The notes below the pieces were generated by a model. It saw only the letters and a list, made by a program, of their open reading frames with translations, had not been told where the DNA came from and searched no databases. Source: a phage. From it: 64,000 nt of DNA. This document shows, piece by piece, positions 11,393 to 64,000 of the stretch; the first letter of the stretch is position 1; every line of letters begins with the position of its first letter. A program made the position numbers and the translations under genes. The stretch lies in sequence record PZ445440.1, one strand, 5' to 3'.

Positions 11393-11818
11393 TTAACTTA
11401 AACGTCTTTCTAAATATTCAATGTATTCCGCTGCGGCTTGCATCAGATTACCTTCATAACCATCATTATTTTCTTGACCGGCTAATTTAGCTAATGCATA
11501 AGAAATTCGTTCACCTTCGAATTCGCCAAGTTTACTACCTAGCACATCCGCAATATCAGCCGAATCAATTTCTTCGAGTTCATCTATTGAATGAGATTCC
11601 CAGAAGCACCAAAGAGAAGTATCACGGTCATAGATGCAAAGTTTCTCACCTGTGTTCAACATCACTTCGTTAATGCCATGGTCGCCATAACCATCTTCGG
11701 TAGTAGTACCAATTACCTTGATGATTGTTCCTTTCTTTAATTCAGGAAACTTGACTTGTAGTTCTTCATCTTCTTTAACAATCTTGAACCATTTACCGCG
11801 AGTTTCAGAAATATTCAT
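11393..11818 (-). CDS. hypothetical protein (T4 pin position; identity unverified)
   Basis: ORF track 11393..11956; start moved to ATG 11818 (MNISETRGKW...). Confidence 0.55.
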   Translation of the reverse strand: MNISETRGKWFKIVKEDEELQVKFPELKKGTIIKVIGTTTEDGYGDHGINEVMLNTGEKLCIYDRDTSLWCFWESHSIDELEEIDSADIADVLGSKLGEFEGERISYALAKLAGQENNDGYEGNLMQAAAEYIEYLERRLS

Positions 11819-11819
11819 A

Positions 11820-11990
11820 TCAATATTCTCTATAAAAGTTACGATGAGAACGTTTAGCTTTGCGAAGCTGACGTTTAGTAGGACGAACTGTAAATGGTTG
11901 TCCAGAGAAAAAATTCGGATCGGTTTTAATAAGCAAATACCAATCATGTTTGCCATTTTTTAATAAACGGTACAATAATTTAACTTGCAT
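11820..11990 (-). CDS. small basic hypothetical protein (56 aa)
   Basis: ORF track 11820..12017 begins with TTG; first ATG at 11990. Confidence 0.4.
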   Translation of the reverse strand: MQVKLLYRLLKNGKHDWYLLIKTDPNFFSGQPFTVRPTKRQLRKAKRSHRNFYREY

Positions 11991-12118
11991 AATAATCTCT
12001 TCCCATTTCCATATCAATTAATTCATTTATTGAAGGTTCATCATAACATGGTTCTTCGTCGTTGTAAACTGTTTCGACGTCTGGCTCGACTGTCTCCCAT
12101 CGAGCAGAATACCACGGT

Positions 12119-12475
12119 TTAACCCCGGAGTTTATTGAGCTCTTCATAATCAATCCAGGATTCTAGCCCTGATGGCAGGTCACATTCAATGTTCCACAGA
12201 AGCTCTTCAATGGCTTGCAGGCGATTATATTCTTCAACGGTAATGGTAACCATTGGTGCAACCGGTTCTGCCTTTTTAACCATCATATCGTTCATCAGGA
12301 CGTAAAGGTCATCACGAACGACAGTGTCGTTCCATCCCCATGATTTGGCTTCGTAAGCTAATGATGAAGGGAGCACATTTAAAACTTCAATAATAGTTGG
12401 AGCATCAGGACCAAGTTCATTGGCACAAACTTCGTATACATCTTGGAAATCTTTAAGATTTAATGAATATGTCAT
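12119..12475 (-). CDS. hypothetical protein (118 aa)
   Basis: ORF track; ATG start. Confidence 0.6.
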   Translation of the reverse strand: MTYSLNLKDFQDVYEVCANELGPDAPTIIEVLNVLPSSLAYEAKSWGWNDTVVRDDLYVLMNDMMVKKAEPVAPMVTITVEEYNRLQAIEELLWNIECDLPSGLESWIDYEELNKLRG

Positions 12476-14773: not shown

Positions 14774-15733
14774 TTATGATTTTAATGCATTCATTGCGTT
14801 AAAAAGTTTAGAATACTGCAACTGGAGATTCGTTACAACACTTTGAGCATCACGAAGCTTAGCTTGTGCTTTGTCAAGTTCAACAGACAGTTGGTCTACA
14901 GTAGCCTTGATTTGGTTGTAATGATAATCTTCGGCTGGAAGAAGGTCATTAGAAACATTTAGTTTTACTGCAGACAGTTTGCACACATTTGGTAAACCTT
15001 TAAACATTGATTTACCTGAAGTAGAATAAGCACTTAGGACTTCAGCCTGTTCAATTGGGGTCCCAGTAAGCGATGCTTCGAACGTTGCATTTTCCTTTTT
15101 AAGATTTTGATAGTATTCAGAGTCTTTGTGCCACCATGGCGCAGGAACCTTTTTACCAATAGATACACGAGCCTGGATAGCGATATGGCCCTTATTCTTG
15201 ATAGGGTCGATAATATTAAGCTCACGAGAATAAATTGCTTTAATCTCATGGATATTATCGCCTAACACTTCTAGCGCTTGGTGGAATACACGAGCAACGT
15301 TATCATTCTTAGGTTTATACGTAAGAGTGAACTCGTTCTCACTGATAACCATGATTTCTAACTTATCGTAAGTGTACTTAAGATGCTTCATGTTAACCGC
15401 TTGAGGACGAATACGAGAAGCAATGGCCATCAGATTGTTAAGGTTATTCCGGAACTGCTTAGCGAAATATTGTCCTTCACCACCAATACAAAAATTACGA
15501 AGTTTCTGTTTGGCTAATAAACGGCTGAACTCACCATTTTTAATGAACTCTTTAACGGGTGTGTTAGTAACGCATTCAAATTGAGTAAACTTACGAGAAT
15601 TAATCCCATAATACGAACAGATTTCCTCAATCTCTTCAGGAGTCTTTACAGGCATACGGATAGGATTAGGTCCTGGAGTATATGCGTTCGAGGTAAATTC
15701 TTTGATAAGTTCTTTACGTGTAATAAAAGCCAT
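14774..15733 (-). CDS. hypothetical protein with C-terminal coiled coil (319 aa)
   Basis: ORF track; ATG with TGAGGAA upstream. Confidence 0.7.
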   Translation of the reverse strand: MAFITRKELIKEFTSNAYTPGPNPIRMPVKTPEEIEEICSYYGINSRKFTQFECVTNTPVKEFIKNGEFSRLLAKQKLRNFCIGGEGQYFAKQFRNNLNNLMAIASRIRPQAVNMKHLKYTYDKLEIMVISENEFTLTYKPKNDNVARVFHQALEVLGDNIHEIKAIYSRELNIIDPIKNKGHIAIQARVSIGKKVPAPWWHKDSEYYQNLKKENATFEASLTGTPIEQAEVLSAYSTSGKSMFKGLPNVCKLSAVKLNVSNDLLPAEDYHYNQIKATVDQLSVELDKAQAKLRDAQSVVTNLQLQYSKLFNAMNALKS

Positions 15734-17860: not shown

Positions 17861-18841
17861 TTATTTCAGTAAAGTTACTTCAGAGATTTCCTCCCAACCA
17901 TCTTTATCAGTTGAAATAAAATCTGCTACATAAAGAGCCGTACGTAATGATACATTGCGAAGACGAGATACGTTAGCCTTCATCCAAGATAATGCTTTAT
18001 ACGTTTCTGCATCAGTCAGACCACGTTTCTGCATCATGTCAGTAGATAATATTACATCTTCAACTCGAACCATAATCTCTTCATTAGAGTGTACTCCAAG
18101 GTCAAGATACACTGAACGAGATACTAAAGCTTGAAGGTGTGGAGCAAGTTTAGAACCGCGTTCTAACTCTTTATCGATATCAACGTTTGTAATGAAAACG
18201 ATAGTACCTTCAAACTCAAATTCTTTATCGATACCCTTATCATCAAGATAAGATGATGCAGTGCTCCAACAAACTTTGCGTTTATCACCGGTATCTAATG
18301 CGGCTTTAAGAAGGTTCAAGATGTCCATATCTGAGAATACGTCAACGTCGTCGATTAAGAGAACGCTGTCTGCATCACGGTTGAGCCAAAGTTGTTCGTA
18401 AAGGCCAATACCAGAGATTTTACCATTAATACTTTTGTATTTGATGAAACCATTATCATTAGCATTATTAAGTGCTTTATCCAGAGAATACGTCTTACCA
18501 ATACCTGCTGCACCTGAAATAATGAGTGAACGAATTTTGCCATCGATAATGCCATTCGTCATCATGTTCATTACTTTAAAGCGTTTGTTGATACGAGTTT
18601 TCATATCTTCAGTGCTTTCAATAACTGCAACTGGTGACGTCTCAACTCCTTCCATTACGATGTCTGATTTGAAGACCCATACTCCACGTTCAGAGCCATC
18701 AATCATAACGAAAATTTTACCATCACCTAAGTGGGAACATTCAGGATTAAGCTTTGCCGGGAACCATGTCTTTGTGGCAACATAAGAACCAGAGATTTCG
18801 TTATTACGATAGATACCTTTTTTGATTTGAACGTTGAACAT
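17861..18841 (-). CDS. AAA+/P-loop ATPase (Walker A GAAGIGKT, Walker B LLIDDVD)
   Basis: ORF track 17861..18853; start moved to ATG 18841 with GGAGAA upstream; motifs read from translation. Confidence 0.8.
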   Translation of the reverse strand: MFNVQIKKGIYRNNEISGSYVATKTWFPAKLNPECSHLGDGKIFVMIDGSERGVWVFKSDIVMEGVETSPVAVIESTEDMKTRINKRFKVMNMMTNGIIDGKIRSLIISGAAGIGKTYSLDKALNNANDNGFIKYKSINGKISGIGLYEQLWLNRDADSVLLIDDVDVFSDMDILNLLKAALDTGDKRKVCWSTASSYLDDKGIDKEFEFEGTIVFITNVDIDKELERGSKLAPHLQALVSRSVYLDLGVHSNEEIMVRVEDVILSTDMMQKRGLTDAETYKALSWMKANVSRLRNVSLRTALYVADFISTDKDGWEEISEVTLLK

Positions 18842-18869
18842 TTTATTCTCCAAATTTACTCATTTCGTT

Positions 18870-18912
18870 TCGATAGGTCTATAATAACATATCCTAAAAG
18901 CATGTACACTAC
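18870..18912 (-). promoter_or_regulatory. early-promoter-like element upstream of the ATPase gene
   Basis: gataggtctataataacat...gtacac motif of the same repeat family. Confidence 0.45.
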
Positions 18913-18937
18913 TTTTTAAAAATATTTTGACCCCCTA

Positions 18938-18955
18938 AAGGGCCCGAAGGCCCTT
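18938..18955. repeat. palindromic hairpin AAGGGCC-cgaa-GGCCCTT (no adjacent T-run)
   Basis: Perfect 7-bp stem; the same GGGCC/GGCCC hairpin recurs after wac at about 60916..60933. Confidence 0.4.
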
Positions 18956-18956
18956 A

Positions 18957-19946
18957 TCATTTATAGTACGAATTGTGGTTTTCTAAGTAGACTTGTTCAA
19001 GGAAGTCATCCCAGAAACTCATATCTACTTTTTGTTGCATACCATTCTTAGCAGCTTGTTCTGCTGCATGTTCAACTTGGTCAACGATATCTTCTAGGAA
19101 TTCCTGTATGGTTTTAAACGTATGTTTACCAAGCTTAACATCGAGAATAAATGGAGCATCCTGAAGCGGGTAAACCAGGTCGCCGGTTTTGTAAATTTCT
19201 AGGAGCTGAAGTCCACCACGGCATGCATGACTCAATGCTTTCCAATCAATACCTTCATTGGCTTCTGCCTTACGAGCACGTTCACCGTAGTTCTCTTCAA
19301 GTTTAACCAGGATGGCATTGAACTCTTTATTGGTTAACGTGTCTTGGAATTTACGGTCCAACAGACTATAGAATGTTTGCTTACCTGTTTTCTCATTTTC
19401 GGTTTCAACCCACGAAGCAAATTCACCTACAGGCAGAACATTCTTCATATGTGATAAACGAATTACTGCACCATTATCAAAGTATCGTCCCCATTCATTA
19501 GAACGTTTAAGGGCTTGACGAAGAACAGCCAGTCGAGAACCCTTGACACCGTATTTAGAAGCTTGCTTACGGACATACCCTAAATAAGATTTCATGTTAG
19601 TGGTATAGAAACGAGACCTGTTATCTTGAATATACTTCCATACATCAGGCAAATCAGATTTAACTACTAGACTTTGTGGAGTGTGAAGCATATCTAATGC
19701 GACGGTTTCACCATCAGCAGCTAGTTTAAAGAAATATTTGAGACTATACAACTCATGGTCCACGTCGTCTTTTGTGTTCTTAGAAGATGTGTTATTCGTG
19801 TTCTTGCTCATGTGTTCTTTAACGTTACCGGTCAAGATATCACGAGCATGAGGGACATAAATTTCTTTAAAATCGACGTCAGATTCAGGAGTAGACGTTC
19901 CATAAAGGTGGCTACCAAAGTAAGCCTTAACAATCGTTTTCATCAT
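18957..19946 (-). CDS. nucleotidyltransferase-fold protein (Pol-beta superfamily motif G-S-x4-G-T-x4-S-D-V-D)
   Basis: 329 aa; N-terminal YFGSHLYGTSTPESDVDF; large helical C-terminal domain; ATG with AAGGC upstream. Confidence 0.75.
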   Translation of the reverse strand: MMKTIVKAYFGSHLYGTSTPESDVDFKEIYVPHARDILTGNVKEHMSKNTNNTSSKNTKDDVDHELYSLKYFFKLAADGETVALDMLHTPQSLVVKSDLPDVWKYIQDNRSRFYTTNMKSYLGYVRKQASKYGVKGSRLAVLRQALKRSNEWGRYFDNGAVIRLSHMKNVLPVGEFASWVETENEKTGKQTFYSLLDRKFQDTLTNKEFNAILVKLEENYGERARKAEANEGIDWKALSHACRGGLQLLEIYKTGDLVYPLQDAPFILDVKLGKHTFKTIQEFLEDIVDQVEHAAEQAAKNGMQQKVDMSFWDDFLEQVYLENHNSYYK

Positions 19947-20416
19947 TTAGCCTTATATTCAAGAGTAGGACAGACTTTTTCTTTACGAGCTTTAAGGTAT
20001 CCACCTATTAATGATTTCTTACGTTCAATAGGCTCAAGTCCATTTTTAATTCGTTCTTGGTTTTGCGCAATGAGCTCAATTTCTTTATAATATTTTCTGT
20101 CGTTATATTTGTCTAACAGCCAAGACGGACCAATTACTAACCCGGTAGCAATAAAAGCCATGACTGCTACAATTAAAATGCCTACACCAATTGAGGCTGG
20201 AACTAATGTCCATAGACTGCTAAAAACAAAGAATTTAGTTAAAATTTCCTGGCCAATGATTGTGACTGCTGCTAAAATCGCAAATCCAATAATTGAAGCA
20301 GCCAATACCGGGATTAACGTTTTCCAAAAATAAGCACACAACGTTTTCGGACGATTCCATGTACTATTGAACGCGGCATAAATTTTAAAGTGCCAAGAGT
20401 TTTCATTGATAATCAT
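19943..20416 (-). CDS. membrane protein (two long hydrophobic helices, basic C-terminus)
   Basis: ORF track; ATGA overlap with the nucleotidyltransferase gene. Confidence 0.7.
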   Translation of the reverse strand: MIINENSWHFKIYAAFNSTWNRPKTLCAYFWKTLIPVLAASIIGFAILAAVTIIGQEILTKFFVFSSLWTLVPASIGVGILIVAVMAFIATGLVIGPSWLLDKYNDRKYYKEIELIAQNQERIKNGLEPIERKKSLIGGYLKARKEKVCPTLEYKAK

Positions 20417-20425
20417 AATAATTCC

Positions 20426-20956
20426 TTATTTCAAAGTTGGGATAATGGAATCGAGATAAGCTTTAAGAGCTACAGCTTCGTCTTTGGTAAATGTAGTAAC
20501 ATGTGAACGTAAATCATCATTTTGGCGAATAGTTACTACATCACCATCTTCATAAGAATTCATGACAGCCAAAGTCGTGGTATAGTTTGGAGCTATTGGA
20601 TTAATAATGTAAGCACCACGACTGATACCCCATTTAAGTTTAGCCTTTTCAGGTGGTTCGGATTCCAAGAATTCTTTCACCTTAGCAACGAATGTTTTCC
20701 AGTTATCGATAGAAAGGCATTTGTCTTCAGTTTCGATATTAGCACCGTTATAAAGCCCATGATAAAAACGAGCCTGAAGGTCTCCACCAATATTAATTGC
20801 CGATGCATGACCAGGCGGATTGAGTTTCAAAATCTCGTCTAGTTCCATAGGACAAATAGTAATACCATCATCTTCCTGAGTCAGAACGTATACATTACCA
20901 CGTTTTTCGATAGTCAAATCACCGAACAGTTCGGTTGTTTCAATTACAGTTTTCAT
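20426..20956 (-). CDS. hypothetical protein (176 aa)
   Basis: ORF track 20426..20968 begins with TTG; ATG at 20956 with GGTGA upstream. Confidence 0.7.
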   Translation of the reverse strand: MKTVIETTELFGDLTIEKRGNVYVLTQEDDGITICPMELDEILKLNPPGHASAINIGGDLQARFYHGLYNGANIETEDKCLSIDNWKTFVAKVKEFLESEPPEKAKLKWGISRGAYIINPIAPNYTTTLAVMNSYEDGDVVTIRQNDDLRSHVTTFTKDEAVALKAYLDSIIPTLK

Positions 20957-20957
20957 A

Positions 20958-21137
20958 TTATTCACCAATTAAAGTTTCAACAAAATTCACCAAATCATTC
21001 TGACGAGCATCAACTTGTTTTTCATAAAAGTCTCCACAGTCATTTACTGCATGATAAGCTACATCATTTAAATCTGAATCAGCTTCACGTAAGTCATGGA
21101 TAAGGTCCATCAATTTATTAGCTTGTTCACGGGTCAT
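20958..21137 (-). CDS. small acidic hypothetical protein (59 aa)
   Basis: Below track threshold; stop overlaps the SD of the next gene, start overlaps stop of 36-aa ORF (ATGA). Confidence 0.4.
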   Translation of the reverse strand: MTREQANKLMDLIHDLREADSDLNDVAYHAVNDCGDFYEKQVDARQNDLVNFVETLIGE

Positions 21138-21244
21138 TTTACCATACTCGTTTCAATAAGATTCACTATGCCGTTTACCATGTTATAAGTAAACATCGGA
21201 TAATTGTATTGTATCACAACGTATACGATAAGCAAAAGTTTCAT
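21134..21244 (-). CDS. small hydrophobic peptide (36 aa)
   Basis: ATG preceded by ATGGAGAACAAA leader directly downstream of promoter element. Confidence 0.3.
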   Translation of the reverse strand: MKLLLIVYVVIQYNYPMFTYNMVNGIVNLIETSMVK

Positions 21245-21261: not shown

Positions 21262-21303
21262 TTGGTAGGACTACTATAACATAGTCCTACCAAGATGTAA
21301 ACT
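21262..21303 (-). promoter_or_regulatory. early promoter with stem-loop (GTTTAC ... TTATAG inside TAGGACTA/TAGTCCTA inverted repeat)
   Basis: Read in sequence; same family at 31790, 33085, 40767. Confidence 0.5.
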
Positions 21304-21515: not shown

Positions 21516-21695
21516 TCACATAATCTCGTTAACATACATTTGCAATTCGGTGTGGGCGTCAGCCATCTTTTTCATAGCTCTGTTAATGTCGATGTCTCCA
21601 TCTTCGCAACCATGAGCATTTTCCCAATCAGATACCGCATTAGCGTACTCTTCAATCAAAAACATTAACTTAGAAATTTTTTCTTTACGTGACAT
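21516..21695 (-). CDS. hypothetical protein (59 aa)
   Basis: ORF track 21516..21764; start moved to ATG 21695 (MSRKEKISKL) with GAGGAG upstream. Confidence 0.55.
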   Translation of the reverse strand: MSRKEKISKLMFLIEEYANAVSDWENAHGCEDGDIDINRAMKKMADAHTELQMYVNEIM

Positions 21696-22942: not shown

Positions 22943-23125
22943 TTATAGTGAATTCACGTAGTCAATGAGTTCTTGTTCTTTCCTGTCAAATGATTCCAAC
23001 AATGCTTGATATTCTTCATCTGTTAAAGGAGCATATTCATCATACGCATTGGTGGCCGCTTGCTCATCCAATAGGTCGTGGATAAGTTCGAACAGTTTAG
23101 TTTTCTCTTCTTTAGTCAATTTCAT
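22943..23125 (-). CDS. small acidic hypothetical protein (60 aa)
   Basis: ORF track; ATG start. Confidence 0.6.
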   Translation of the reverse strand: MKLTKEEKTKLFELIHDLLDEQAATNAYDEYAPLTDEEYQALLESFDRKEQELIDYVNSL

Positions 23126-23586
23126 TTAGGTTCCCAATCAACAATCACAATTTCTAGTTTAGTGGAATACGTATCTAAAATCTCTTCGATGACATCCCAG
23201 TTTCCACCACCAATACCTGCACCAATTCTTGGCATATAAATTACAGGCTTTGTTATCTTATTCTTTCCGAATTCATTTAATTCTATTATACAATTCATTA
23301 AAGCATAGTACTCAAAATTAGGTCCAGGCTCAAACTGTGTATAAAGATTAAAGCAATAAGCTTTATGGGTCTTAAAATATTTTTCATAAACCGAATAAGT
23401 CCCGAGTTTAGACTCGTCTCCGAATTCGGTTTGAAGTTTATCGGCTTCCAGAATTTTTGGATAAGCCTTTGCTAATTGTCCTGCTACACCGGCACCCATT
23501 GTATGAAAACAATTACACCCATGAGCAATATTATTACCTTTAGAAAACAGGGCGACAATATCGCCCTTGATATAGTTTTTAATCAC
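23122..23586 (-). CDS. macro-domain protein (ADP-ribose binding/processing fold)
   Basis: ORF track 23122..23616 begins with TTG; probable GTG start 23586 with AGAGGA upstream; GDIV...AHGCNCFHTMGAGVAGQ and IGAGIGGG glycine-rich motifs. Confidence 0.7.
   Translation of the reverse strand: MIKNYIKGDIVALFSKGNNIAHGCNCFHTMGAGVAGQLAKAYPKILEADKLQTEFGDESKLGTYSVYEKYFKTHKAYCFNLYTQFEPGPNFEYYALMNCIIELNEFGKNKITKPVIYMPRIGAGIGGGNWDVIEEILDTYSTKLEIVIVDWEPK

Positions 23587-63513: not shown

Positions 63514-64000
<487 letters not shown>

Follow-up and report, generated by a model that had tools for sequence, protein, structure and literature searches.

What function is served by a nucleotidyltransferase (NTase) gene that lies, in a phage, between the genes for a small membrane protein and an AAA+ ATPase? 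The question is raised by positions 17861 to 21244 of a 64,000-nucleotide stretch of phage DNA (sequence record PZ445440.1), the whole of which is referred to below as the window. The initial annotation treated the NTase, the adjacent protein with two transmembrane (TM) helices and the AAA+ protein as a candidate uncharacterised module, in which the NTase might be a signalling or anti-defence enzyme, or part of a captured defence-like system. The open reading frames (ORFs) that it listed are all present, on the minus strand, and the finding is real but largely ordinary: the NTase falls in the already known RlaP RNA-repair family, and by homology it is probably, though with considerable reserve, an accessory counter-defence enzyme that adds 3' nucleotides to broken RNA.

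Identity of the nucleotidyltransferase and its gene block

The NTase, with the N-terminal sequence YFGSHLYGTSTPESDVDF, matched the Pfam family PF10127 (RlaP, "RNA ligase-associated Pol-beta") at 49.9 bits against a gathering cut-off of 23 (E = 4.6e-13), with residues 7-207 aligned to positions 23-207 of the 249-position profile. The same family is precomputed for this protein in the database, and phrog_388, 'nucleotidyltransferase', matched at 1e-125. HMMER, run exhaustively against 1.84 billion representatives, returned 3289 clusters at E <= 0.001, and among 60 diverse homologues G11, G16, S22, D23 and D25 were invariant, with S12, D61 and D63 nearly so. Profile-profile comparison with the canonical 265-aa RlaP using hhalign (93.7% probability) aligned D23, D25 and D63 with D50, D52 and D83, which are invariant in canonical RlaP, and G11-S12 with the invariant G38 and the nearly invariant S39. 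In the structure model, which has a mean predicted local distance difference test score (pLDDT) of 93.3, the catalytic residues are carried on strands 24-31 and 62-68, and the closest structural matches are minimal NTases, namely HalB, 3c18, KNTase, LinB and MNT. The Pol-beta fold and acidic catalytic residues proposed in the initial annotation are confirmed, as predictions, by Pfam, by profile-profile comparison and by the model, and the identity and catalytic competence of the enzyme are well supported. The annotation had named a missing fold or missing acidic residues as grounds for refutation, and neither was found. Sequence searches against Protein Data Bank (PDB) chains, conducted with the NTase as a single sequence and with NTase, TM protein and AAA+ profiles, returned nothing significant, and the crystal structure of PfRlaP was not detected.

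The 6.3-kb stretch around the NTase locus matches Escherichia phage ChristianSchoenbein (Bas46, MZ501056; Straboviridae, Mosigvirus), an E. coli phage, at 100% identity, and more than 100 further Mosigvirus-type records at 95-98%. In the RefSeq annotation of T4 between nrdC and tk, gene order and orientation match those of the Bas46 block, which lies between nrdC and rI/tk, and the flanking genes nrdC.8, nrdC.9, mobD.1, mobD.2, rI and tk are common to the window and T4. The NTase, gp195 of Bas46, is 77% identical over its full length to T4 NrdC.11 (NP_049709, annotated 'nucleotidyltransferase') and the AAA+ protein is 78% identical, also over its full length, to NrdC.10; full-length identity and conserved gene order place both proteins within the nrdC.11 and nrdC.10 orthologous groups, respectively. 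The 176-aa protein shares 43% identity with MobD.1, and the 36-aa ORF 68% with MobD.2. Judged by sequence and gene order, the region is the conserved nrdC.10/nrdC.11/mobD.1/mobD.2 early-gene block of a T-even-like phage, and its members are core-accessory genes that have been conserved vertically among T4-like phages. T4 differs in having the HNH homing endonuclease gene mobD (11430-12209 of our T4 locus, L002) at the exact place of the 2-TM gene, which T4 has lost and which is present in Bas46, RB27 and most relatives.

The initial annotation could assign none of these genes to a T4 gene of known function, and this holds in that T4 nrdC.10, nrdC.11, mobD.1 and mobD.2 are all without an experimentally defined function. 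The NTase family, however, is not an uncharacterised one: the NTase annotation of nrdC.11 dates from 2006, when its COG3541 NTase domain and the AAA motif of nrdC.10 were recorded in a comparison of T4-like genomes (PMC1524935), and RlaP biochemistry was described in a 2025 preprint (10.64898/2025.12.29.696909). Many public phage records call the nrdC.10 and nrdC.11 orthologues and adjacent genes 'thioredoxin', apparently through annotation spill-over from nrdC.

Proposed RNA 3'-end repair and the RlaP family

Repair of PrrC-cut tRNA by T4 Pnk and Rnl1 is the classic case of viral RNA repair, and RloC is thought to beat this repair by removing the wobble nucleotide too. In the proposed mechanism, the NTase would extend cleaved RNA at its 3'-OH by one or two nucleotides, template-free, acting presumably for the most part on tRNA halves left short of a nucleotide by RloC-type host anticodon nucleases. 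A working tRNA could then be resealed by enzymes that the phage encodes at other sites in its genome, namely polynucleotide kinase and the RNA ligases RnlA and RnlB, all three of which are present in Bas46. We infer both the RNA substrate and the link to anticodon nucleases from homology, and such a function has already been proposed in the literature. The earlier suggestion of an anti-defence role survives in this broad sense, with repair of RNA cut by host nucleases as the best reading, whereas that of a signalling enzyme does not.

The name RlaP derives from the association of the family with RNA ligases, and phage RlaP proteins have been predicted to restore RloC-removed nucleotides prior to ligation (PMC7824862). 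Two purified Pseudomonas RlaPs were subsequently reported to add one or two nucleoside monophosphates (NMP) at the RNA 3'-OH, with damaged RNA preferred and RNA the sole substrate accepted among E. coli macromolecules; the same work solved an RlaP structure, in which the NTase domain is followed by a helical domain and a terminal helix, and placed T4 NrdC.11 in the family with its function unknown (10.64898/2025.12.29.696909, December 2025 preprint). The RlaPs of Pseudomonas fluorescens and P. aeruginosa, which are encoded in RtcB operons, resemble the phage NTase in their match to PF10127, the GS motif and the three aspartates, and in having an N-terminal NTase domain and a helical C-terminal domain that ends in a terminal helix. 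Conversely, the phage protein is ∼65 residues longer than the Pseudomonas-type enzyme, is divergent in its C-terminal half and belongs to a separate similarity cluster, and its gene, unlike those in RtcB operons, is not adjacent to an RNA ligase gene.

The genomic context of bacterial and archaeal relatives was examined at 80 loci with NTase homologues of 34-51% identity, the NTase being recovered by ORF calling in 72. RNA-repair genes, scored as neighbours within 3.5 kb and with family representatives confirmed by Pfam, were found at 27 of these 72 loci, and at 17 of the 43 that have full flanks. A canonical RlaP paralogue lies directly downstream at 21 loci, while RtcB is a neighbour at seven, Ro60 (TROVE + vWA) at six, a Pnkp-type kinase-phosphatase-ligase at four and Hen1 at three. 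Bacterial relatives of the NTase clade thus often stand in tandem with canonical RlaP, as opposed to replacing it.

The tandem pairs consist of a long NrdC.11-like NTase (∼305-330 aa) followed by the canonical 265-aa RlaP, in RtcB/Ro60 or Pnkp/Hen1 operons, examples being found in Nitrosospira (locus L153), in Asticcacaulis (L196), at loci L194, L195, L204 and L206 and at 15 others. The arrangement points to a pair of RlaP enzymes acting together in bacteria. In an uncultured phage (L037 7974-8978, L038 1529-2533), the gene for an RlaP homologue of 36% identity has directly after it one for a 334-aa protein, AcrVA2-like according to Pfam, with a CCA-adding-type enzyme (PolyA_pol + HD) encoded ∼5 kb downstream.

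Several observations weigh against assigning the phage enzyme to RNA 3'-end repair. NMP addition to the RNA 3'-OH is known for the Pseudomonas enzymes only, and these fall in similarity cluster 1a, whereas NrdC.11 is in cluster 5 (10.64898/2025.12.29.696909), such that RNA-end activity in the NrdC.11 clade would be ascribed by homology from biochemistry conducted in another. The hhalign alignment with canonical RlaP covers the N-terminal NTase core only, the C-terminal helical half being divergent. Moreover, 45 of the 72 bacterial loci have no recognised repair neighbour, and in the phage genome the NTase gene shows no local linkage to repair genes, lying ∼85 kb from pnk and rnlA, with rnlB ∼85 kb or more away. 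Finally, deletion of nrdC.11-mobD.3 from T4 is tolerated in the laboratory (PMC9825161), which fits an accessory role while giving no clue to function.

An alternative is that the NTase nucleotidylates a protein or small molecule, in the manner of MNT- or KNTase-type AMPylation, as a means of host takeover or resistance. The structural neighbours of the model, which include kanamycin, lincosamide and aminoglycoside NTases and MNT antitoxins, are compatible with this idea, as is the C-terminal helical bundle, which in the structure search resembled HEPN and KNTase_C domains and which was not aligned with canonical RlaP. However, Pfam assigns the protein to RlaP, and its scores against MntA (NCBIfam, 13.3 bits versus a cut-off of 60) and NTP_transf_2 (Pfam, 13.6 versus 21) are far below threshold. 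In addition, no HEPN family match was found in the scanned neighbour proteins, and the features of an MNT/MntA type VII antitoxin were not recognised at the locus. With bacterial relatives located in RtcB, Pnkp, Hen1 and Ro60 operons, and the characterised RlaPs being specific for RNA among the macromolecules offered, modification of a protein or small molecule seems unlikely. This alternative, and the three considered below (a three-gene machine, a Hailong-like pair and a CD-NTase), are all less likely than RNA 3'-end repair.

The AAA+ ATPase and the membrane protein as neighbours

The initial annotation correctly identified the AAA+ protein, in which Walker A (GAAGIGKT) and Walker B (LLIDDVD) motifs are present. 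These motifs, N219 and several arginines are invariant among homologues, and the protein has the sensor-1 and arginine residues, the alpha/beta core and the helical lid of the AAA+ superfamily. The same core and lid are found in the MoxR (NorQ/CbbQ), bacterial enhancer-binding protein, MuB and initiator/clamp-loader (DnaA, Orc/Cdc6, RFC) groups, with which NrdC.10 also shares Walker A and B, the sensor-1 Asn and conserved arginines. Conservation is strong, with 62% identity retained in Acinetobacter phages, and the named homologues among the best 120 of 911 proteins all come from T4-like phage records. The GenBank start codon is the ATG at 18841, the mechanical ORF beginning at a TTG at 18853.

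A gene order of TM, NTase and AAA+ was observed in ∼37 of 42 close-relative loci (T-even-like, Acinetobacter and related phages), and all three proteins are conserved, the AAA+ protein very strongly, as might be expected were they to form one three-component machine. The intergenic region between the NTase and AAA+ genes argues against this. It contains a GC hairpin with a UUCG loop followed by an early-type promoter, a layout that is kept in seven phages, including T4; the promoter position and its GTTTACA/TAnTAT hexamers are conserved in the same set, and the hairpin shows compensatory stem changes between phages, with a T-run after the stem in most, even though taken alone its fold is no better than that of shuffled sequence (z = -1.1). 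Because a conserved hairpin and early-type promoter separate the two genes, the AAA+ gene is considered a separate transcription unit, as predicted from sequence, and the proposal that it has its own promoter is upheld. The possibility that the AAA+ gene is preceded by a MotA-type middle promoter was considered and rejected, since alignment with T4 and other phages shows the early-type GTTTACA-17-TAnTAT.

The distribution of the genes also argues against a single machine. In a survey of 80 AAA+-anchored viral loci, none of the 37 in which AAA+ identity is 56% or less has an NTase or TM gene within 6 kb, and in RB49-like genomes more than 50 kb lies between the NTase and AAA+ genes. In some phages that carry the NTase, no AAA+ gene is present within 5 kb of it (loci L012, L016 and L029), and insertions of variable length (0.3-2.3 kb) separate the genes in others. 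A three-component machine, as implied by the three-gene module of the initial annotation, is accordingly rather improbable; the TM, NTase and AAA+ genes represent a conserved gene order and not a demonstrated module. Neighbouring genes provided no recurring clue to the function of distant AAA+ homologues, no family being present at more than eight of 38 loci. The boundaries of the TM, NTase and AAA+ genes with one another are an insertion hot spot, with inserts of the above sizes in many relatives (L012, L018-L021, L025 and L047-L081).

The membrane protein has hydrophobic stretches at approximately residues 34-56 and 67-101, which by hydropathy correspond to two, possibly three, TM helices; the 2-TM description is therefore sound as regards the hydrophobic stretches, and less certain as regards the number of helices. 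It matched phrog_944 at 7e-52, and tblastn located homologues in 1201 phage records, non-T4-like phages included. Alignment of 13 diverse members revealed an N-terminal SWHxKL...C-x-YFW motif and a C-terminal K-x-K-x-C motif in which C149 is usually followed by Pro, with W8, C27, Y29, K147 and C149 invariant. Both tails are Lys/Arg-rich, and therefore probably cytoplasmic, and it is on these predicted cytoplasmic tails that the invariant W, Y, K and two Cys residues, and a nearly invariant H, are located.

The ATGA overlap between the TGA stop of the TM gene and the ATG start of the NTase gene is real, as originally described. However, of 38 related loci only 11 retain the overlap, the remaining 27 having an insertion of 0.3-1.3 kb at this point. 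The TM family is absent beside distant NTase homologues; ICP1, Pakpunavirus, Vibrio phage D148 and Eneladusvirus are among those in which a TM gene is found without the NTase, and the NTase occurs without the TM gene in RB49-like phages, other phages and bacteria. The TM protein and NrdC.10 are therefore best described as conserved neighbours within the lineage, as opposed to obligate partners of the NTase.

The TM protein was also considered as a dedicated RNA-repair partner. The gene lies within RNA-repair clusters in Pakpunavirus (metallophosphoesterase, helix-turn-helix protein, TM, Rnl1, P-loop kinase) and in Vibrio phage D148 (Rnl1, Pnk, phosphoesterase, TM), but these two lineages, themselves unrelated, must be set against several contexts of other kinds, which comprise dNMP-kinase-like and MazG-like genes in ICP1, Tad3, primase with DNA polymerase, SSB with integrase and YopX, and unannotated genes in Eneladusvirus. 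The link is weak and a dedicated TM-NTase partnership is unproven. It is conceivable, but doubtful, that in T-even-like phages the TM protein is a true partner of RlaP, perhaps anchoring RNA 3'-end repair to the inner membrane or regulating it there, or forming with the NTase a Hailong-like nucleotide-gated membrane switch. At two other loci (L124 6001-6872 and L125 708-1579), a distant TM homologue is followed by a stop-start-overlapping protein that matches Pfam Tad3. Tad3 is, we presume, an anti-defence family.

In the Hailong system, the membrane channel HalA is gated by an oligonucleotide that the NTase HalB produces (PMC13434031). The phage pair could operate in the same fashion as a membrane switch, or could be a decoy by which such a signal is supplied or mimicked. 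A TM gene followed by an NTase gene with overlapping stop and start codons, in the style of a two-gene operon, is indeed reminiscent of such a system. Nonetheless, there is no sequence similarity between the phage proteins and HalB or HalA, neither protein was matched by PADLOC, and the TM profile found no HalA or other channel in the PDB, so that the combination of a HalB-like NTase with a HalA-like tetrameric membrane channel was not recovered at the locus. Neither are the two families co-distributed: each is found without the other, T4 itself having the NTase and no TM gene, and the overlap, as noted, is confined to a minority of loci. A Hailong-like function is consequently considered very unlikely.

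The remaining possibility, that the NTase is a CD-NTase or cGAS-like enzyme which makes or disturbs cyclic-nucleotide immune signals, or is part of a captured defence system, has in its favour only a generic G-S...D-x-D motif common to all Pol-beta NTases, and can, within the reach of these searches, be dismissed almost entirely, given that the family is PF10127, that PADLOC did not match the NTase (nor did PADLOC or NCBIfam provide a useful match for any of the six proteins), that no CD-NTase family appeared in the Pfam or NCBIfam results, that the bilobed cGAS/DncV/OAS-type fold was not recognised, with no cGAS or DncV among the structure-search hits listed, and that the genes are vertically conserved in T4-like phages.

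Upstream genes and possible implications for phage RNA repair

The features of the block are collected in Table 1. The two small ORFs at its upstream end, which had been taken for leader ORFs, are by sequence comparison conserved genes and not leader peptides, one encoding a DUF7438 protein and the other being the mobD.2 orthologue (phrog_3515). Three DUF7438 paralogues of ∼60 aa are encoded on the minus strand within 2.2 kb (20958-21137, 21516-21695 and 22943-23125), interspersed with mobD.1, rI and tk. The first paralogue is called 'helicase loader' by one PHROG, a label that looks unreliable. The stem-loop promoter reported upstream of the block was recovered by the promoter scan. The -10 hexamer of this predicted early promoter falls within the loop and 3' arm of the perfect 13-bp hairpin (-20.6 kcal/mol, z = -5.6). 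The hairpin could act in the processing or termination of transcripts from upstream, or occlude the promoter.

Table 1. Predicted genes and regulatory elements of the NTase locus (window coordinates)
Feature	Position	Strand	Details
AAA+ ATPase, NrdC.10 orthologue	17861-18841	-	326 aa; beta-rich N-terminal domain, AAA+ core, helical lid
Candidate sigma-70 (T4 early-type) promoter of AAA+ gene	18881-18908	-	TGTACA-16-TATTAT, TG upstream; promoter scan
Terminator-like GC hairpin, UUCG tetraloop	18938-18955	-	Directly 3' of NTase stop codon; terminator scan
Pol-beta-fold NTase, NrdC.11 orthologue	18957-19946	-	329 aa; RlaP, PF10127
Small membrane protein	19943-20416	-	157 aa; 2-3 TM helices; phrog_944; stop overlaps NTase start codon
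MobD.1 orthologue (y05I-like putative transcription factor)	20426-20956	-	176 aa; Pfam T4_y05I_N 1.9e-36, T4_y05I_C 1.1e-13
DUF7438 protein	20958-21137	-	59 aa; Pfam match 1.9e-14
mobD.2 orthologue	21134-21244	-	36 aa; phrog_3515 match 1.3e-20
Sigma-70-like promoter with overlapping 13-bp perfect hairpin	21301-21273 (promoter); 21264-21293 (hairpin)	-	TTTACA-17-TATAGT; promoter scan

Further upstream, a Macro-domain protein (Pfam Macro, 2.9e-6) is encoded at 23122-23586 on the minus strand, at the position of T4 Tk.4 and just upstream of tk. As regards the limits of the window itself, window base 15700 corresponds by arithmetic to record base 121209, such that window positions ∼63523-64000 would overrun the 169,031-bp GenBank record by ∼478 bases; the overrun probably continues into the start of the record, the genome being circularly permuted.

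The window contributes one more NrdC.11 orthologue and its context to an idea, that of an RloC antidote, which is already in the literature. The context added is that bacterial relatives of the clade are located in RtcB, Pnkp/Hen1 and Ro60 operons, often beside canonical RlaP, and that the AAA+ and membrane protein genes are lineage neighbours as opposed to demonstrated partners. Both T4 and Bas46, a phage of the BASEL collection, would allow the RloC-antidote idea to be tested directly. Should it be true that an RlaP of the NrdC.11 type restores the wobble nucleotide, then the phage repair pathway would have in it the third enzyme that it has so far lacked.

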